A DNA stretch of 64,000 nucleotides, from contig LBRL01000001.1 in assembly GCA_000991405.1 (NCBI GenBank), positions 3,744 to 67,743 of the forward strand, given 5' to 3'. The DNA is from Candidatus Nomurabacteria bacterium GW2011_GWD2_36_14. Lineage in GTDB: Bacteria; Patescibacteriota; Minisyncoccia; Phycocordibacterales; UBA9973. Under the pieces are notes generated by a model, which saw nothing but the letters and a program-made list of their open reading frames with translations, ran no database searches and was not told the origin of the DNA. Positions 1 through 42,718 of the stretch are shown in pieces (the first letter of the stretch is position 1; every line of letters begins with the position of its first letter). The translations under genes and the position numbers were made by a program.

Positions 1-2
1 CT

Positions 3-173
3 ACAGTAACAACAGAGAATACTTCTACATCAGATAGTAGCACTACTATAGGAGGCACAACAACTACTACACCGTCAGATGTTGTAGCTCCAGATTCAAT
101 TACCAGTGAAGTAGTAACTCCTGCTGTAGAAGCACCAGCTGAAAGTACCTCGGTTGTAAGTAGTACGTTATAA
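3..173 (+). CDS. C-terminal fragment of a Thr/Ser-rich (probably secreted) protein; the gene starts upstream of the window
   Basis: The open frame runs from the window edge to TAA at 171-173. Translation is ..TVTTENTSTSDSSTTIGGTTTTTPSDVVAPDSITSEVVTPAVEAPAESTSVVSSTL, with low-complexity T/S/V composition like the surface proteins downstream. Confidence 0.3.
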   Translation, partial: TVTTENTSTSDSSTTIGGTTTTTPSDVVAPDSITSEVVTPAVEAPAESTSVVSSTL

Positions 174-180
174 GATAAAA

Positions 181-1209
181 ATGATACATTCTTTTCATCA
201 GAAAAATAAAACGAAAAACAATAGATTACATTATTTTTTTTATGTAGCGATTTTTTTTGTTGTTGTATTCTTACCTATTTCGTATCTTTACGCGGCCCTT
301 TCTTGCTCGATTACTACTTCAGTGGCTTGTGGTTCTGATACGGTAATACTTCGAATGTCGGGAAGTACGAATGCTCATGCCGAGCTTCCAAGTCAGTCCA
401 CGGGGGCTTATGATAGTAACGTTGTTTGTTGTACTGGAGTGACAGGATTAGACAATTCTTGTGCCTCCAGCAACAAGGCAATTATTGCTCGACTCTCAGG
501 AGTGACCAATGCACATGTCGAGAAGAATACTGAAGCCAATGCCAACTACACACAGAATGCTTGTATGTCTAGTGCTTATGCTGGAGATGAAATAACTATT
601 GGATACCAAGCGACAAATTGTACAGGGTACGACACTACACTTTTTTCTATGGAGAAGACCCCAACCAATTCTATGGTTGGAAGTCCCGCTACTTATACCA
701 ACAAAGTTTGCGCCAAGGTTTATTCGCAATCAATTTCTTTTAATTTATCTTCATCCTCAGCTGGTTTTGGTAACTTAAATTCTTCTGGTTTACGCTATGC
801 GACTGCTGATGGGGTAGGAAGCTCGACAGAAGCTGAGTCTTATTCTTTGAGTGCCAGTACTAATGCTCCATCGGGTTATGTTCTTATGGTTAAAGGGTCC
901 GCTCCCTCCAAAGGGGCTATTGTTATTGATCCTATAGGTGGTACACCTACAACTCCCACACCAGGCTCGAAAGCTTTTGGTATTAGAGCTGTTGCGACGG
1001 GAGGGGCTGGTACTGTTGTTTCTCCTTATAACGGGTCAGGTTTTGCTTATGATGCCAGTGACACTAGCTTTACAACACTAGCTCAAGCTTCATCGGGGGA
1101 TGGGAATAGTACTTCTTATTCTGTCCGTTCAGTTGCCACTATAGATTCACTTTTAGATCCGGGTATTTATTCTACAAATTTGACATACATTGTTGTTGCC
1201 AACTTTTAA
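181..1209 (+). CDS. Secreted Cys-containing surface protein (paralog 1 of 3). Its C-terminal ~170 aa are homologous to the next two genes
   Basis: It has an N-terminal hydrophobic segment and internal repeats RMSGSTNAHAE / RLSGVTNAHVE. The C-terminal region shares the blocks FGNL.SSG, STNAP.GY, FGIRA.A.GG.G.V, YSVR..A.I and a ..NF end with ORFs 1309-2364 and 2382-3458. Confidence 0.55.
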   Translation: MIHSFHQKNKTKNNRLHYFFYVAIFFVVVFLPISYLYAALSCSITTSVACGSDTVILRMSGSTNAHAELPSQSTGAYDSNVVCCTGVTGLDNSCASSNKAIIARLSGVTNAHVEKNTEANANYTQNACMSSAYAGDEITIGYQATNCTGYDTTLFSMEKTPTNSMVGSPATYTNKVCAKVYSQSISFNLSSSSAGFGNLNSSGLRYATADGVGSSTEAESYSLSASTNAPSGYVLMVKGSAPSKGAIVIDPIGGTPTTPTPGSKAFGIRAVATGGAGTVVSPYNGSGFAYDASDTSFTTLAQASSGDGNSTSYSVRSVATIDSLLDPGIYSTNLTYIVVANF

Positions 1210-1308
1210 GCAAAACAGTGTATAACTTTTTGCTATATATGGTTATATTGTTGTATAATAGACATGTAACATAATTTATCTTTTATTATAACTGTCAATT
1301 ATTTTTTT

Positions 1309-2364
1309 ATGATTAAGAAACTCACGAGTTCCGTTTTAATTCTCGGGATTATAATAATAAATTTTAGTTTTATAACACCACCCATTGCGATGGCGGCCAG
1401 TTTAACCTCTCTATCAGACACCGTATCCAATTTGACAGCCAGCACTGTAGCCAACCACGTTATCAGATTCACTACTCCGACCGGTGTTCCTGCAAGTGGA
1501 ACGATTATTCTTACTTTCGATAATGGTACCAATACAGGATCTGTTGATTATACAGATGTGGACATTCAAGATGATGGTGTTGATGTTGCTGTTGCAGCAA
1601 CTCCTGTAACTACAACGTGGGGAGTAGCCAGGACATCATCCACTGTTATTACTCTTACCAATGGTTCTGCTGCTGTTGCAGGCGGAAGTGTCATTACTAT
1701 AGATATAGGTACCAATGCAACTTATGGAGTTACAGGTACCCATCAGATTACCAACGGTACTGCGGGTACGACAGTTCTTCGTGTTAGTGGAAGTTTCGGA
1801 GATACAGGGGCCATGTCTACTGCCATTGTTTCCAATGGTGTTGTTTCTTTGTCAGCTGAAGTTCTAGCTTCTCTTACTTTTACTGTTTCTGATAACACCA
1901 TTTACTTTGGTAACTTGAAATCATCTGGTAGTTCATGTTGGGCACAAGGTACTGATCCTGGATATGTCACTTGTCCTACTGTCGCTGAGGCTGAGGCCTT
2001 CAATATGACCGCTGCCACAAATGCACCAACTGGTTATACTATAAGTGTCCAAGGGCCTACTCTAACCTCAGGTTCCAACACTATTACAGCTCTAGCTTCA
2101 GCCACTGCTCCTTCTATTGGTAGTGAACAATTTGGTATACGAGCCAATGCATCAGGTGGAAGTGGAGCCGTAAATGCAACTTATGGCACAGCAGGACAAT
2201 ATGCTTTCACTGCCAATGCTACGACAGCAGTAGCTGTGGCGACAGCCTCAGCTCCTTCGGCTACGACTACATACTCCGTTCGTTATATCGCCAACATTTC
2301 TCCCACAACAGAAGCAGGTAGTTATACCGCGGCACATACTTACATTGCAACGGGTAACTTTTGA
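1309..2364 (+). CDS. Secreted surface protein (paralog 2 of 3), function unknown
   Basis: It has a Sec-type signal peptide (MIKKLTSSVLILGIIIINFSFITPPIAMAA). It is ~65% identical along its whole length to the next ORF and ends in the shared ..TGNF tail. It is T/S/G/A-rich. Confidence 0.6.
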   Translation: MIKKLTSSVLILGIIIINFSFITPPIAMAASLTSLSDTVSNLTASTVANHVIRFTTPTGVPASGTIILTFDNGTNTGSVDYTDVDIQDDGVDVAVAATPVTTTWGVARTSSTVITLTNGSAAVAGGSVITIDIGTNATYGVTGTHQITNGTAGTTVLRVSGSFGDTGAMSTAIVSNGVVSLSAEVLASLTFTVSDNTIYFGNLKSSGSSCWAQGTDPGYVTCPTVAEAEAFNMTAATNAPTGYTISVQGPTLTSGSNTITALASATAPSIGSEQFGIRANASGGSGAVNATYGTAGQYAFTANATTAVAVATASAPSATTTYSVRYIANISPTTEAGSYTAAHTYIATGNF

Positions 2365-2405
2365 TTATTATTAGTTAATTATTGTTATTATTAATTTTAT
2401 TTTTT

Positions 2406-3458
2406 ATGATTAAAAAAATTTTGAGTTTTGTGTTAACGGTCGGAATGGTTGTTATAAATTTTGGATTTATAACACCACAGGTGGTTTCTGCTGCTAATTT
2501 GACTTCTATGTCAGACGTAGTGTCAAATCTAACAGCAAGTGCAGTTGCCAACCATACCATAACCTTTACAACACCTACAGGTCTTGCTTCTGGGGCAACT
2601 CTTATCCTTACCTTTGATAACAGTACCAGTATTGATGCTGCATTAACTTATGCAGACGTTGACTTTAGATATGCTTCCACCGATGTTACTTTGGCGGCGG
2701 CTCCATCTGGAGCAACTATGGGAGTAGTTCGTACTTCAGCAACGGTTCTTACATTTACCAATGGAACTACTGTGATTGCTGGAGGTTCAGTAATAGTGAT
2801 TAAGATAGGTACCAATACAACTATAGGTGGTACTGGAACTCACCAAATAACCAACGGTACTGCTGGCACTACACTCCTTCGTGTTAGTGGCACATTTGGA
2901 GATACAGGAGCTATGTCAATGTCAATAATTTCAAATAGTATCGTAGCTGTCTCAGCTGAAGTTCTCTCCAGTCTTTCCTTTACTGTTTCCAGTAATGCTA
3001 TTTACTTTGGTAACTTAAGAACGGCTGGTGCTTGTTTTGCTCAAAATACAAATCCAGGCTATGTAACTTGTCCGACTACAACAGAAACTGAAGCTTTCAA
3101 TATGACAGCTGGAACAAATGCTACAGCTGGTTATACTATAAGTGTCCAAGGTGACACTCTGACCTCAGGAGCCAATACTATTACAGCCCTAGCTTCAAAC
3201 ACGGCTTCTTCTCCTGGTAGTGAACAATTTGGATTGAGAGCAACAGCTACAGGTGGAGGAGGTGCAGTTCAGGCTCCATATGCAGCCGCTGGTTATGCTT
3301 ATACAGGCACAACATCAACTCCAGCCACAGTGGCTACTGCTTCAGCTCCATCCGCTACGACTACATATTCCGTTCGTTATTTAGCCAACATTTCAGCTGT
3401 AACAGAAGCAGGAAGTTATTCTACCTCTCATACTTATGTAGCAACAGGTAACTTCTAA
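2406..3458 (+). CDS. Secreted surface protein (paralog 3 of 3), function unknown
   Basis: The start was moved to the Met of MIKKILSFVL at 2406, which matches the paralog 2 N-terminus. It is collinear with paralog 2: SNLTAS.VANH.I.FTTPTG, LRVSG.FGDTGAMS, YFGNL, GYVTCPT, GSEQFG(I/L)RA, TTTYSVRY.ANIS, ATGNF. Confidence 0.6.
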   Translation: MIKKILSFVLTVGMVVINFGFITPQVVSAANLTSMSDVVSNLTASAVANHTITFTTPTGLASGATLILTFDNSTSIDAALTYADVDFRYASTDVTLAAAPSGATMGVVRTSATVLTFTNGTTVIAGGSVIVIKIGTNTTIGGTGTHQITNGTAGTTLLRVSGTFGDTGAMSMSIISNSIVAVSAEVLSSLSFTVSSNAIYFGNLRTAGACFAQNTNPGYVTCPTTTETEAFNMTAGTNATAGYTISVQGDTLTSGANTITALASNTASSPGSEQFGLRATATGGGGAVQAPYAAAGYAYTGTTSTPATVATASAPSATTTYSVRYLANISAVTEAGSYSTSHTYVATGNF

Positions 3459-3483: not shown

Positions 3484-4509
3484 ATGAAAATTAAAAAAAC
3501 AAAATTCAGTTTAATATTTATCGCGGTAATCATCATATCTTTTGTTTATTGCAATAATAGTGCTCAAGCTTTGACTATTTCACCAGCACGTATAGAAGTG
3601 AGTGGAGACCCTGGGACAGTTATCAGTAAAGAGATCACTTTATTGAACGATAGTAAGGCAGGAGAAGAAACTTACTATGTTTCTTATTCCAACTTTGAAG
3701 CTCAAGGCGAGACAGGAAGTCCTTTATTTGTAGAACCTAAGGGCGATCTTGGTACATGGATGAACGCAGGTCAGTCAGTAACTCTTAGGGCCAATGAATC
3801 CAAAAAGATTCTCCTAACTATAACAATACCTCAGGATGCATATTCTGGTGGACACTTTGCTGTTGTTTTCTTTGGCAACAATCCCGACAACGGTGGACAA
3901 GTTTCAGTTGGGGCAAAGACGGGAACCCTCGTTCTTTTAACTGTCAACGGTGATGTTTTAGAAGCCGGAGGTCTTTCCTCTTTTAATACCAAGAATCATA
4001 AATTGTTTTACAATACCTTACCTGTTTCCTTGGAGTATCGATGGAAGAATGATGGAAACGATCGTGTAAAGCCGGATGGGAAAGTTACTATTAGAAATAT
4101 ATTCTATATTCCAGTAGCTCATATAGACGCGAATGCTGTCTCAGGTAATATCTTGCCTCATAGTACTCGTCTTTTTAATGTTGAATGGTTGAAATATAAA
4201 TCTCCTAAAGACGAAGTTGTCAGTCGTTCGTTTCTTGGTTCATTTTTTGAGCGCGTAGATTATCAATGGAAGAACTTTGCTGTCGGACCTTATCTTGCGC
4301 ATCTAGATCTTAATTATGGCAAAGACAATCTTCACAGTAGTAAAACCTTATTATTTTTTGTCTTTCCTTGGCAATTGTTGATTATTATTTTGGTGGTTCT
4401 AATTATTGTATTTTATATTGGAAGGAAACTATTGAAATCATACAATCAACGTATTATCGAGAAAGCTCGCTTGGATATCAATACTCCCAAGCAAGCTAAT
4501 CATGCTTAG
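3484..4509 (+). CDS. Secreted beta-sandwich-like protein with a C-terminal transmembrane anchor. It resembles DUF916-type cell-surface proteins from Firmicutes WxL/Csc surface loci
   Basis: It has a signal peptide. ISPARIEVSGDPG...TLLNDS...SGGHFAVVFFG matches the DUF916-like pattern (V.V.P...L.N.S ... GG..f). The C-terminal hydrophobic stretch LLFFVFPWQLLIIILVVLIIVFYIGRK is followed by basic residues. Confidence 0.4.
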   Translation: MKIKKTKFSLIFIAVIIISFVYCNNSAQALTISPARIEVSGDPGTVISKEITLLNDSKAGEETYYVSYSNFEAQGETGSPLFVEPKGDLGTWMNAGQSVTLRANESKKILLTITIPQDAYSGGHFAVVFFGNNPDNGGQVSVGAKTGTLVLLTVNGDVLEAGGLSSFNTKNHKLFYNTLPVSLEYRWKNDGNDRVKPDGKVTIRNIFYIPVAHIDANAVSGNILPHSTRLFNVEWLKYKSPKDEVVSRSFLGSFFERVDYQWKNFAVGPYLAHLDLNYGKDNLHSSKTLLFFVFPWQLLIIILVVLIIVFYIGRKLLKSYNQRIIEKARLDINTPKQANHA

Positions 4510-5302
4510 AATTCTATTAAAAAATATTCTCATATGTTTTTCATTATTTGTGTTTTTGATTCCACAAGTACTTTTTGCTGATGGGTCAGCAACTGTCACT
4601 ATCTCAGCTATGGTTGGAGTATCTGCTCCAGTATCTCCAGATGAAGGTGGTGGAAGCGGAAGTGGCGTGGGTGGCGTATTGGTAACCATACCAGATAGCC
4701 CAACGGTTATAAATTTTTCTGGTTTTGCGTACCTTTTCTCCAGTGTTTATATTTTAATAGATGGCCAAGCTATCATGGCAACAACCCCCGATAAAACGGC
4801 TCATTTTTCAGCATCAATTTCAGGACTACAAGCTGGGACTTACAATTTCTCCATTTATGGAGAGGATGATAATGGGAAGAAATCTTCTGTTTTATCATTT
4901 CCGATAATTGTGACCAAGTCTAATATTATCAATATTAGTAACATATTTTTATCTAGAACTCTTGATTTAGATAATAATGAAATTAAAACGGATACTAATC
5001 TAGTAGATATCCTTCCCAAGAATGATTCTCTAAAGACAAAACCTCCTCTGGAAGGGAAAACAACGGAAGACCAAGCCCTCGACCCTCTTTTAAATAGAGA
5101 CACAACTATACCTAACAATGGAGTTAATTATTACGTATCAAGGGTGGATTTCAATAGCGATAATCATATTGATTTAAAGGACTTCTCTGTGCTTGTTAGT
5201 TGGTATACGAAACCAAAACCTCCAAGGGGTATTGATCTAAATGATGACGGCAAGATTACCTTAGCAGACTTTAGTATTATGGCATCTCATTGGACTGATT
5301 AA
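4502..5302 (+). CDS. Secreted protein with a C-terminal dockerin domain (two Ca-binding repeats)
   Basis: It has a signal peptide. The C-terminus has two EF-hand-like dockerin repeats: DFNSDNHIDLKDFSVLVSWY and DLNDDGKITLADFSIMASHW. Both fit DxNxDGxxxxxD followed by an aromatic residue. Confidence 0.7.
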   Translation: MLRILLKNILICFSLFVFLIPQVLFADGSATVTISAMVGVSAPVSPDEGGGSGSGVGGVLVTIPDSPTVINFSGFAYLFSSVYILIDGQAIMATTPDKTAHFSASISGLQAGTYNFSIYGEDDNGKKSSVLSFPIIVTKSNIINISNIFLSRTLDLDNNEIKTDTNLVDILPKNDSLKTKPPLEGKTTEDQALDPLLNRDTTIPNNGVNYYVSRVDFNSDNHIDLKDFSVLVSWYTKPKPPRGIDLNDDGKITLADFSIMASHWTD

Positions 5303-5308
5303 ATATTT

Positions 5309-6199
5309 ATGAGAAAAATTATAATATTTACAATCTTTTTTATCTTAAATTTATTTATAACAAATAAGATATTTGCTGCCACTTTGACATTAGTTTCTTC
5401 AAAGGAATCTCTTGGTGTTGGTGAACAATTTTACATGGATCTCATGTTAGACCCAGAAGGAAAATCATTAAATGCCATAGAGGGAAATATTTCATTCTCG
5501 AGCGATTATGTTTCTTTCGTTCGAGCTGAGGAAGGTAAATCCATTGTCAGTCTGTGGGTAGAGAAACCAAAACTAAATAATATTAACGATAATTCTATTA
5601 ATTTCTCTGGGATTATACCCAATGGATTTAGTGGTGTTATTGATCCATTTAATCCTAAATATAAATTATCAGTCTTAGTACTTCGTTTTGTTTTTGAAGC
5701 TAAAAAGCCAGGAATAGCCAACTTTTCTTCCTTGCCTTTTTCTTTATATCTAAACGATGGATTAGGTACCGAGATAAAAGCGCTCCCCGTTAATATGTCA
5801 CTCAATATTGATAATTTTGTTTTTCATTACACATATGAGAATAAGAATGAAAGCATTCCAACCTTAGAAGCACATGTCGTACGTACTCCAAATATTTTTA
5901 ACAACAAGTATACTATCATTTTTGATGCTAGAGATAAGGAAGTAGGAATAAAAAGTGTATTTATAAAAGAAGGTAACAGCGAATGGAAAGAAATAGAAAG
6001 TCCATATAAACTTGAAGATCAATCTCGTCATAGTGACATCACCTTACAAGCTATCAACTTTTCTGAAGCTAGTATTATTATGAAGATTGATAAAGTACCA
6101 TATAGTATAAAGTTTTATATTCAAATAATTATTATTATTCTTATTGTTACTATTTCTTCTATTATTTTAATTCGAAAGAGATATCTTAAAGATAAATAA
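5309..6199 (+). CDS. Cohesin-like domain protein with a C-terminal transmembrane anchor (putative membrane-bound scaffoldin)
   Basis: It has a signal peptide. LTLVSSKESLGVGEQFYMDLMLDPEGKSLNAIEGNISFSSDYVSFV..GKSI fits the cohesin N-terminal strand pattern (V.V....V..G..F.V.V......gi.a..f.l.yd...L). The C-terminal segment FYIQIIIIILIVTISSIILIRKRY is a membrane anchor. Confidence 0.5.
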   Translation: MRKIIIFTIFFILNLFITNKIFAATLTLVSSKESLGVGEQFYMDLMLDPEGKSLNAIEGNISFSSDYVSFVRAEEGKSIVSLWVEKPKLNNINDNSINFSGIIPNGFSGVIDPFNPKYKLSVLVLRFVFEAKKPGIANFSSLPFSLYLNDGLGTEIKALPVNMSLNIDNFVFHYTYENKNESIPTLEAHVVRTPNIFNNKYTIIFDARDKEVGIKSVFIKEGNSEWKEIESPYKLEDQSRHSDITLQAINFSEASIIMKIDKVPYSIKFYIQIIIIILIVTISSIILIRKRYLKDK

Positions 6200-42061: not shown

Positions 42062-42718
42062 TTATTTATTATAATTAAGCCATTCAAAAATTTCTTTTGT
42101 GAATGATTTTTTGTTTGGAAAATATTTTGGAAAGGTTTCTTTATTTAAAATATTGTTTTGAATTCTTTCTATCCCCAAATAATCAAGATAACTACTATAT
42201 TGGTAATTGTATAAATATTCTAAGGTTTCTTTTTTATTTTTAACCCCGACTTCTTTCCAATCTTTTTGTATAAGTTTTATTGGATTTAAGTGAATATATG
42301 AAAATAAGTATTTTAAATAACGCTCTTCACTTACATGCTCTGATTTAAATTTACCTTCAAAAAGTCCACCAGTATGTTTGTATTTTTTATTATAATACAT
42401 TACATATGCAGTAGTTAATTTTTGCATAAATTTGCTTATACTGCCATCTTCTATCTGTGTTATAAGAATATGAAAATGATTAGGCATAATACAAAAAGAT
42501 CCTATTGATACTAACTGCTTGCCCCTTTCAAAATCATATGGGCTTTCTTTTACACCAAGACCAAACATTCTGAAATTATTTTCAGAATTACAAGCAAACA
42601 TAAGACCCATAAAATGAAAACAATCCTCATTGTCATGAAAGATTTTTTGTTTACTATTACCACGATTAAATACATGATAATACTCATTATTAACTAGGTT
42701 TACCTTTCTAATAGACAT
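42062..42718 (-). CDS. IS200/IS605-family Y1 (HuH) transposase of the REP-associated tyrosine transposase (RAYT) type
   Basis: YHVFNRG, the HuH motif MPNHFHILI, and the catalytic Tyr region YLFSYIHLNPIK. The gene is bracketed by identical hairpins. Confidence 0.7.
   Translation of the reverse strand: MSIRKVNLVNNEYYHVFNRGNSKQKIFHDNEDCFHFMGLMFACNSENNFRMFGLGVKESPYDFERGKQLVSIGSFCIMPNHFHILITQIEDGSISKFMQKLTTAYVMYYNKKYKHTGGLFEGKFKSEHVSEERYLKYLFSYIHLNPIKLIQKDWKEVGVKNKKETLEYLYNYQYSSYLDYLGIERIQNNILNKETFPKYFPNKKSFTKEIFEWLNYNK

Follow-up and report, generated by a model that had tools for sequence, protein, structure and literature searches.

At the start of the window, by which we mean the whole stretch of 64,000 nucleotides of Candidatus Nomurabacteria DNA that was analysed, lies a conserved cluster of six genes: three tandem ORFs that encode paralogous secreted proteins, a DUF916/WxLIP homolog, a dockerin protein, and a cohesin-like protein (Table 1). 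The same gene order is found in two other Paceibacteria-type genomes, and in public records all genes of the cluster are listed as "hypothetical protein". The gene upstream, of which the window holds the 3' end, encodes a tail-fibre-like protein with a Peptidase_S74 intramolecular chaperone domain at residues 1915-1984 (Pfam PF13884, 50 bits); the C-terminal domain common to the paralogs is absent from this protein. For paralog 3, the start is ATG 2406 in public gene calls, with TTG 2382 as an alternative.

Table 1. Features of the gene cluster, in nucleotide positions of the window and residues of the encoded proteins.
Feature	Position (nt)	Strand	Residues (aa)	Remarks
Upstream gene, 3' end	1..173	+		Cut by window start; 2162-aa tail-fibre-like surface protein, full gene on the same contig at L001:2377-8865
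Paralog 1	181..1209	+	342 aa	Putative Pam-family subunit with distinct Cys-rich N-terminal domain; NF058581 60.2 bits
Paralog 1, signal peptide			1-38	
Paralog 1, N-terminal domain			39-172	Seven of eight Cys; two SG(S/V)TNAH(A/V)E repeats
Paralog 1, SG(S/V)TNAH(A/V)E repeats	355-384, 493-522		60-68, 106-114	
Paralog 1, linker NKVCAKVYSQ	700-729		174-183	Holds the eighth Cys, invariant Cys177
Paralog 1, C-terminal domain	739-1206		187-342	
Paralog 2	1309..2364	+	351 aa	Putative two-domain Pam-type shaft pilin; NF058581 86.2 bits
Paralog 2, signal peptide			1-29	
Paralog 2, N-terminal domain			30-176	Beta-sandwich
Paralog 2, linker VVSLSAEVLAS	1840-1872		178-188	Putative donor strand
Paralog 2, C-terminal domain	1879-2361		191-351	Cys210-Cys222 pair
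Paralog 3	2406..3458	+	350 aa	Putative second shaft pilin; NF058581 86.3 bits
Paralog 3, linker IVAVSAEVLSS	2940-2972		179-189	
Paralog 3, C-terminal domain	2973-3455		190-350	
Putative Pam chaperone	3484..4509	+	341 aa	DUF916/WxLIP superfamily; signal peptide
Chaperone candidate, Ig-like domains			30-131, 146-293	
Chaperone candidate, complementing strand (candidate) NNPDNGGQVSVGAKTGTLVLLTV	3877-3945		132-154	Conserved; first part low-confidence in model
Chaperone candidate, C-terminal transmembrane helix	4354-4422		291-313	
Dockerin protein	4502..5302	+	266 aa	Secreted
Dockerin protein, mature N-terminus ATVTISAMVGV	4589-4621		30-40	Carries pilin linker motif
Dockerin protein, Gly-rich linker			49-58	Followed by Ig-like domain
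Dockerin protein, C-terminal type I dockerin	5141-5293		214-264	Two Ca-binding repeats
Cohesin-like protein	5309..6199	+	296 aa	Membrane-anchored; signal peptide
Cohesin-like protein, cohesin-like domain	5417-5809		37-167	Followed by second domain
Cohesin-like protein, C-terminal transmembrane helix	6113-6172		269-288	From hydropathy

The first-pass annotation had placed three true paralogs with a common C-terminal domain in tandem on the forward strand, and both this statement and the coordinates hold. The domain comprises about 160 residues in each protein; its sharing stands, while the earlier extent of ~170 residues should be corrected to about 155–165, to which a conserved linker some 12 residues long is added. 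In paralog 1, the similarity to paralog 2 is confined to the part between residue 184 and the C-terminus (35% identity over 165 residues, E 4e-19 in composition-adjusted BLASTP). In Smith–Waterman comparisons of paralog 1 with paralogs 2 and 3, the C-terminal domains score 24–28 standard deviations above shuffles (n = 500), whereas the N-terminal halves give z < 1, that of paralog 1 being unrelated to the others. The highlighted motifs FGNL, TNAP.GY, FGIRA, YSVR, and the terminal NF represent invariant or conserved columns. The domain matches 1053 representative clusters at E ≤ 1e-3. In all 150 best matches listed, the domain ends the protein (at the last residue in 148 and one residue short in 2) and is fused to N-terminal regions in proteins of 146–3243 residues. 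Within the window only three copies are present, each joined to an N-terminal domain.

The designation "unknown family" is outdated since NCBIfam now has a curated model and Pam pili have been described in a cryo-EM preprint. These surface filaments, found on ultrasmall CPR bacteria, were reported for the first time in 2026 and solved by cryo-EM in Ca. Mycosynbacter amalyticus (Troman et al., bioRxiv 10.64898/2026.03.03.709456). Their pilins consist of two domains and polymerise as the strand linking these enters the C-terminal domain, an incomplete Ig-like fold, of the next subunit; the homologues belong mostly to Saccharimonadia and Microgenomatia, and the pam operon has ATP synthase genes and the gene for a tail-fibre-like protein as conserved neighbours (Troman et al. 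2026).

All three paralogs exceed the cut-off of 55 bits for NF058581, "Pam pilus system pilin subunit" (CPR_Pam_pilin_C), and the PamT model covers only their common C-terminal domain (E about 3e-11). Among the sampled relatives, 73/73 match NF058581 and 69/73 match PamT. As in Pam pilins, the conserved columns of the family alignment fall in the linker and the C-terminal domain. Near its N-terminus, each paralog has a single hydrophobic stretch with a site of the A-x-A type behind it, which represents a putative Sec signal peptide; there is no lipobox. The motif scan agreed with the earlier statement that no LPXTG, W-x-L, or prepilin motif occurs in any of the three; lacking both the prepilin G/F..E signal and a C-terminal LPXTG, they do not match type IV or sortase-assembled pilins. 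PamA and PamB, the sequences of which are absent from the preprint text, were returned neither by sequence searches nor by the PDB fold search, and the link to Pam runs via the family models. A Foldseek search of PDB with the paralog 2 model gave only generic tandem-Ig adhesins (TM about 0.2). We consider it probable that the products of the three ORFs are building blocks of a CPR-specific filament, the Pam-type pilus. The find is genuine, yet the family already has its name, the Pam pilin domain. The suggestion that these proteins are structural subunits is upheld as regards their secreted, pilin-like character, and donor-strand assembly is the mechanism known for the family to which they belong (NF058581 matches; Troman et al. 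2026).

Paralogs 2 and 3 do align collinearly from end to end (66% identity, BLASTP E 2e-147). However, their duplication, previously called recent, is not so, because nucleotide identity is 70% and the same codon is used at only 55% of the identical residues. The structural check was favourable: the AlphaFold2 model of paralog 2 (pLDDT 89.6) has two beta domains, with strands at 33-174 (about 10 in the N-terminal domain) and 189-349 and with a confidence dip at 177-183, inside the conserved linker. The conserved residues of this linker are V179, A183, and V185, and its motif lies exactly 21 residues before FGxL in 27/73 and 39/68 family members. We infer that paralogs 2 and 3 are the shaft pilins. 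The C-terminal ..GNF end, once proposed as a donor strand, should be viewed differently, as the solved Pam members donate the inter-domain linker (VVSLSAEVLAS in paralog 2) and the C-terminal strand is a part of the acceptor domain. Since this conserved strand is always at the protein end in the 150 best matches listed, it may matter for chaperone binding.

The description of paralog 1 as having a different, Cys-rich N-terminal half with a duplicated SG(S/V)TNAH(A/V)E motif was confirmed. All 8 Cys residues are invariant in 3 orthologs, in which both repeats are kept too, and orthologs occupy the same position in the syntenic loci L079 and L080. The variable Cys-rich N-terminal domain together with the invariant linker Cys suggests that paralog 1 may be a tip or distal subunit of the adhesin type.

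The 3484-4509 product, in which Arg36 of the first strand is invariant, gave an AlphaFold2 model with pLDDT 85. In PDB, its closest folds according to Foldseek are the E. faecium WxLIP entries 9i1y and 9i25 (E about 1e-10, TM 0.41–0.54), one of which shows WxLIP in complex with a long WxL protein; next come RbmA and two chaperones of chaperone-usher systems, CfaA and CsuC. Pfam WxLIP_PGBD (PF06030) is matched by 46/65 members of the family at E ≤ 0.01, while the product itself reaches 17 bits, under the cut-off of 27.3. Profile comparison with Firmicute WxLIP by hhalign indicates homology (probability 94.7%, E 5.6e-8); the conserved WxLIP motif NQIDKxxxYFDLK is absent from the product. This protein is likely the Pam chaperone, and an assembly chaperone is a more likely role for it than a display scaffold. 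The earlier view that the subunits may be displayed by the DUF916-like, dockerin, and cohesin proteins is retained as far as membership in the same conserved cluster is concerned and revised with respect to the DUF916-like protein as a scaffold.

The dockerin domain scores 20.8 bits with Dockerin_1, just under the Pfam cut-off of 22.9, while two orthologs are above it (27.7 and 23.9 bits). The linker motif V-x-[VLI]-[ST]-A-x-V occurs only 3 times in the 32,881 translated residues of the window, namely in two pilin linkers and in the dockerin protein, both orthologs of which keep it; one chance copy of this 7-residue motif per window is not rare (0.4, a rough estimate from approximate residue frequencies). 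The 5309-6199 product has no direct Pfam match, and its residues 37-167 are 29% identical (E 1.4e-11) to a region of the syntenic L080 paralog where Pfam Cohesin scores 42.4 bits; its orthologs have the same position in L079 and L080. We suppose that the dockerin protein may serve as pilus terminator and anchor adaptor and the cohesin-like protein as its membrane receptor, these roles, like that of paralog 1, being suggested by motifs and domain logic. Such a terminator and anchor, made of a linker-motif dockerin and a cohesin, would go beyond the preprint of Troman et al.

The following scheme of assembly can be proposed. Unassembled subunits would be held at the membrane by the 3484-4509 product through strand complementation. 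Paralogs 2 and 3 would form the filament shaft, in which the linker strand of one subunit would enter the incomplete Ig-like C-terminal domain of its neighbour (donor-strand exchange), building an extended filament that needs neither usher nor ATPase; the strand exchange and the filament built by it are taken from the solved Pam members. Paralog 1 would occupy the distal end as the adhesin-type subunit. The dockerin protein would cap the last pilin via its N-terminal copy of the linker motif and would then bind the membrane cohesin protein, tethering the filament, so that these two proteins would stand in for PamR, the single anchor of M. amalyticus.

An unlikely, though the best surviving, alternative is that the cluster works as proposed for the WxL proteins of Enterococcus and Lactobacillus, where the DUF916/WxLIP-like membrane protein would hold the subunits singly at the cell surface by strand complementation, with no polymerisation. 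The fold and profile matches of the 3484-4509 product to WxLIP are consistent with it, as is the layout of the cluster, with several subunits sharing a C-terminal domain and one WxLIP with a transmembrane helix. When the Pam C-terminal domain is compared with small WxL domains by hhalign, a weak collinear match over 134 columns is obtained in which FG, G[WY]x[LI], and LT[WY] align (P 0.008), but the probability is 4.8% (0.7% versus large WxL domains), and bridging to WxL via actinobacterial WxL-like proteins failed. Moreover, Pfam WxL (PF13731) is matched by 0/73 family members, and the three paralogs have no W-x-L motif. The match to the curated model, the founders of which form filaments in cryo-EM, argues for pilins, and strand donation between subunits explains both why the linker between the domains is conserved and why the dockerin protein carries a copy of it.

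It is very improbable that the paralogs are unrelated surface or S-layer-type adhesins, in which the C-terminal domain is a module for anchoring in the cell envelope rather than for polymerisation. Anchoring modules often sit at the protein end, fused to varied N-terminal regions, which resembles the arrangement in the 150 best matches listed, and Thr, Ser, Ala, and Gly are abundant in the paralogs, as in many surface proteins. However, no known anchoring domain (SLH, LPXTG, WxL, or LysM) was detected, because the Pfam searches gave no significant match for the paralogs and motif scans found neither LPXTG nor W-x-L; besides, the curated family is that of pilins with solved structures, and a chaperone-like partner is encoded next door. 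The last explanation, that low-complexity composition alone produces the similarity of the C-terminal domains (Thr, Ser, Gly, and Ala make up 45–54% of the three paralogs), was raised by the first-pass annotation and is refuted by the composition-adjusted BLASTP E value, by the shuffle scores, which are high for the C-terminal domains and negligible for the equally biased N-terminal halves, and by the invariant position-specific columns kept across 73 diverse relatives.

Regarded as Pam-type pilins, the paralogs share with the known Pam proteins (PamA, PamB, PamE, PamT; NF058581, NF058579) a C-terminal pilin domain that passes the curated cut-off, a Sec signal peptide, paired Cys residues, and a CPR host. 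The architecture of paralogs 2 and 3 is also the same: a beta-sandwich N-terminal domain (about nine strands in Pam), a conserved linker, and a beta-rich C-terminal domain, encoded in an operon with a PapD/FimC-like, membrane-anchored two-Ig chaperone-like protein and a tail-fibre-like neighbour. The differences concern the host, which belongs to Nomurabacteria (Parcubacteria group), the chaperone candidates (one here, two in Pam), and the gene content: the window has no single-domain PamT-like tip subunit, and no ATP synthase genes were seen in its annotated stretches (up to 12 kb and 34-55 kb). PamR, an RbmA-like anchor with an N-terminal donor strand, has no clear counterpart in the cluster; at the expected anchor place stand the dockerin protein, with a donor-like strand, and the cohesin-like protein, with a transmembrane helix.

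The chaperone-usher pili (Pap, Fim, CFA/I, and Csu) are similar in that an incomplete Ig-like pilin domain is filled by donor-strand exchange, which has been established for Pam too. Further points in common are a chaperone with two Ig domains (Foldseek ranks CfaA and CsuC near the top) and the two-domain logic of the tip adhesin. No sequence-level match to PapD or pilin families was found. In contrast to them, the cluster encodes no usher-like or other large membrane protein, there is no outer membrane, and the putative chaperone has a membrane anchor; the donor strand would be the linker between the domains of two-domain subunits and not an N-terminal extension on single-domain pilins, and the filament, judging from the Pam structure, would be extended and not coiled.

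With cellulosome-type systems, the cluster shares a putative type I dockerin and a cohesin-like domain on adjoining gene products (4502-5302 and 5309-6199). However, enzymes and a scaffoldin are lacking here, the pair is located within a pilus cluster, and the dockerin protein starts with a strand similar to the pilin linker. To our knowledge, there is no precedent for a cohesin–dockerin pairing that would plug a filament capped by a linker mimic into the membrane.

The Firmicute WxL clusters, where WxLIP consists of DUF916, DUF3324, and a transmembrane helix, offer a further parallel. The 3484-4509 product is homologous to WxLIP domain 1, and in both systems several secreted subunits with a common C-terminal domain are combined with one membrane-anchored two-Ig protein; WxLIP is predicted to complete the subunit beta-sandwich with a strand (Hassan et al. 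2023, PMC10599100). The subunit domain here differs by the lack of W-x-L motifs and of a Pfam WxL match, and the profile comparison is not significant; furthermore, WxL proteins are described as peptidoglycan-bound and not filamentous, unlike Pam pilins. Tentatively, and with more doubt than confidence, one can suggest that Pam and the WxL clusters of Firmicutes and Actinobacteria are branches of an ancient single-membrane system, the Nomurabacteria filament being dockerin-capped and cohesin-plugged. If this is true, subunits would be passed on, through strand complementation, by a membrane-anchored chaperone of the DUF916 type; the Pam C-terminal domain would represent a WxL domain in which W is replaced by Y, and strand exchange may also underlie the assembly of WxL proteins.

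Two ideas are absent from the preprint: the placing of the Pam chaperone in the DUF916/WxLIP superfamily, which would connect Pam with the WxL surface clusters that Gram-positive bacteria have and that are still poorly understood, and the possibility that a cohesin–dockerin pair terminates and anchors the filament. Pam pili are the first CPR-specific pilus class and are thought to make the first host contact in the one cultured example. Their recognition here puts the Pam system in the Parcubacteria group and offers a compact six-gene cluster for testing its assembly.

The three tandem secreted proteins at the start of the window (paralogs 1, 2 and 3) belong to a very recently described family, the Pam pilins, which now explains a feature assigned to an "unknown family" in the first-pass annotation. 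Pfam gave no significant match for any of the three, and all of them are assigned to NF058581, "Pam pilus system pilin subunit" (NCBIfam release 20), with scores of 60.2, 86.2 and 86.3 bits, where the curated cut-off is 55. The model of the tip pilin PamT is also matched, in its C-terminal half, by paralogs 2 and 3, the putative shaft pilins. In the Candidatus Nomurabacteria genomes that the window matches, all six cluster proteins (6/6; locus tags UR97_C0009G0003-0008) are annotated as hypothetical.

Positions of the pilin cluster ORFs in the window
Feature	Position	Strand	Remark
Paralog 1	181-1209	+	342 aa ORF
Paralog 2	1309-2364	+	351 aa ORF
Paralog 3	2382/2406-3458	+	350 aa from ATG 2406 (public gene calls)
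Chaperone candidate	3484-4509
Dockerin protein	4502-5302
Cohesin-like protein	5309-6199

The definition of the family comes from Troman et al. (bioRxiv 10.64898/2026.03.03.709456), where PamA and PamB were identified by cryo-EM of Ca. Mycosynbacter amalyticus filaments; their models are listed there as 25PZ and 25QA. In each of them, a beta-sandwich N-terminal domain of nine strands is joined by a single linker strand to an Ig-like C-terminal domain, which is truncated and takes up the linker of the adjacent subunit. According to the same preprint, the pam operon includes PamC and PamD (PapD/FimC-like chaperones with a C-terminal transmembrane helix), the single-domain tip pilin PamT and the membrane-anchored RbmA-like terminator PamR, while its conserved neighbours are a tail-fibre-like protein and ATP synthase genes. 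Our assignment was made via the NCBIfam models, and the likeness to PamA/PamB follows the description in the preprint, in which their sequences are not printed.

The feature itself is real, and only one word of its first description fails. Only from residue 184 on does paralog 1 align with paralog 2 (35% identical over 165 aa; E 4e-19 after composition adjustment), and when its C-terminal part is locally aligned with those of paralogs 2 and 3, the scores are 24-28 sd higher than for 500 shuffles. It follows that the similarity is position-specific, and T/S/G/A composition is excluded as its cause. The C-terminal motifs quoted earlier are conserved columns of the family. Paralogs 2 and 3 are indeed collinear, aligning end to end with 66% identity, and the N-terminal half of paralog 1, described as different, is indistinguishable from shuffles when compared with them. 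The duplicated SG(S/V)TNAH(A/V)E motif of paralog 1 is kept in three orthologs, as are all of its cysteines (8/8), and a motif scan of the three paralogs agreed that LPXTG, W-x-L and prepilin motifs are absent. What does not hold is that the duplication of paralogs 2 and 3 was "recent", as their nucleotide identity is 70% and the same codon is used in only 55% of identical residues. The longest ORF of paralog 3 begins at TTG 2382; ATG 2406 is the start used in public gene calls and the one better supported when paralog 3 is aligned with paralog 2.

The search with a profile of the C-terminal domain, which had been proposed as a check, covered 1.84 billion proteins and returned 1053 representative clusters (E<=1e-3). 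Among the best 150 hits listed, the match ends on the last residue in 148 and one residue earlier in two, in proteins of 146 to 3243 aa, and NF058581 is matched by 73/73 sampled family members. In the PDB, nothing relevant was found by the sequence search with paralog 2 or by the profile search with the C-terminal domain, and Foldseek with the paralog 2 model retrieved only generic tandem-Ig adhesins (TM about 0.2); tblastn of the domain against plasmids gave no match. The Pam C-terminal domain also terminates proteins of up to 3243 aa (P0249-P0388) that are almost devoid of Pfam domains, one G8 domain being found among five of them searched; these may represent giant cargo or adhesins mounted on pili.

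Structure prediction, the other proposed check, gave for paralog 2 a beta-rich domain at residues 30-175 and a second one reaching the C-terminus (AlphaFold2 model built from 68 homologs, mean pLDDT 89.6). Confidence dips at residues 177-183, coinciding with the conserved V179, A183 and V185, as is expected of a linker strand that is paired only within the polymer. The motif V-x-[VLI]-[ST]-A-x-V stands exactly 21 residues upstream of FGxL in diverse relatives. Since a 12-column linker profile (HMMER) is too short and misses even true linkers, we used a regular-expression count instead. The motif occurs three times among the 32,881 residues of six-frame ORFs in the window, where about 0.4 would be expected by chance (a rough estimate from approximate residue frequencies), and the three sites are those of the two shaft pilins and the dockerin protein only.

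In the dockerin protein, the motif lies at the mature N-terminus (ATVTISAMVGV, aa 30-40, window 4589-4621) and is followed by a Gly-rich linker. It is kept in both dockerin orthologs from other genomes (L079:13170-14084 and L080:12116-13033), whose overall identity is 36-44%. The C-terminus of this protein is a type I dockerin, for which the window copy narrowly misses the Pfam cut-off that both orthologs exceed. The next product bears a signal peptide and, towards the C-terminus, a transmembrane helix; over residues 37-167 it matches the part of a syntenic paralog that is classified as Cohesin by Pfam (42.4 bits). We suppose that the last pilin receives the N-terminal strand of the dockerin protein and that, as this protein has no new groove to offer, filament growth would end there; its dockerin would then bind the membrane cohesin, so tethering the filament.

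The chaperone candidate is made up of a signal peptide, a pair of Ig-like domains and, towards the C-terminus, a transmembrane helix. In structure it is most like E. faecium WxLIP (entries 9i1y and 9i25, the latter being WxLIP bound to a long WxL protein); next come RbmA of V. cholerae and two chaperones of chaperone-usher systems, CfaA and CsuC. Its profile found nothing relevant in the PDB. Pfam WxLIP_PGBD (DUF916) is matched by 46/65 members of its family, and comparison with a profile of Firmicute WxLIP proteins collected in this analysis gave a probability of 94.7% (E 5.6e-8) versus 2.8% for the reversed-sequence control. In tblastn, a bona fide DUF916 protein of Clavibacter was matched at E 2e-6. 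The most conserved stretch of the candidate is residues 140-164, the start of which is modelled with low confidence in the monomer; for WxLIP, it is predicted that a loop left disordered in the monomer model turns into a strand completing the WxL sandwich (Hassan et al. 2023, PMC10599100). On the fold matches, the DUF916 homology and this conserved low-confidence stretch, comparable to the WxLIP loop, we read the product as a putative Pam chaperone of the DUF916/WxLIP superfamily. The Pam preprint makes no mention of WxL or DUF916.

On the chaperone side, the Pam and WxL systems are homologous; on the subunit side, homology is a hypothesis. Pfam WxL was found in 0/73 family members. The hhalign comparison of the Pam C-terminal domain with small WxL domains is weak (probability 4.8%, P 0.008), with a same-order alignment of 134 columns that pairs FG, G[WY]x[LI] and LT[WY]. 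The comparison with large WxL domains was negative, that with actinobacterial WxL-like proteins aligned only 16 columns and provided no bridge, and reciprocal HMM ranking showed slight enrichment only.

Relatives of these components were also seen on plasmids. Plasmid pCP of Clavibacter phaseoli encodes, beside a DUF916 gene, a hypothetical protein of 208 aa (L007:4954-5577) that matches the profile of Firmicute WxL; GW.V is retained in it, its second motif is degenerate (TITLSL) and lies at the very C-terminus, and some of its UniRef relatives are named WxL domain proteins. The Streptomyces neighbours of DUF916, RTX-repeat proteins, were uninformative. On a Deinococcus sp. plasmid (L078:4854-10539), a hypothetical protein resembling the chaperone candidate (E 3e-4) is surrounded by hypothetical proteins and a 1090-aa carboxypeptidase-regulatory-like protein, and this locus may be another distant relative of such systems.

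The 99-nt gap between paralogs 1 and 2 contains a promoter-like site (1230-1259, + strand: TTGCTA, 18 nt spacer, TATAAT), which could allow separate expression of the shaft pilins; promoter-like sites in the scan were no commoner than in shuffled sequence, and the terminator-like sites it returned were rejected, lying inside ORFs. Farther away, a 218-aa ORF (42062-42718, - strand), which in the matching genome is a Y1_Tnp (IS200/IS605-type) transposase, is surrounded by the housekeeping genes tsf, rpsB, mreB, mreC and uvrABC.

The cluster order (giant surface protein, paralog-1-like protein, one or two shaft pilins, chaperone-like, dockerin and cohesin-like proteins) recurs in two further genomes, in one of them also between pheT and gyrB. 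Just before paralog 1 ends a protein of 2162 aa (L001:2377-8865; window 1-173) that bears a Peptidase_S74 (tail-fibre chaperone) domain and from which the Pam C-terminal domain is absent. The annotated stretches of the window show no ATP synthase genes. The Peptidase_S74 protein matches the tail-fibre-like neighbour of the pam operons described in the preprint; the link to DUF916 and the possible cohesin-dockerin anchor are local twists beyond the known Pam family, and both are worth testing.
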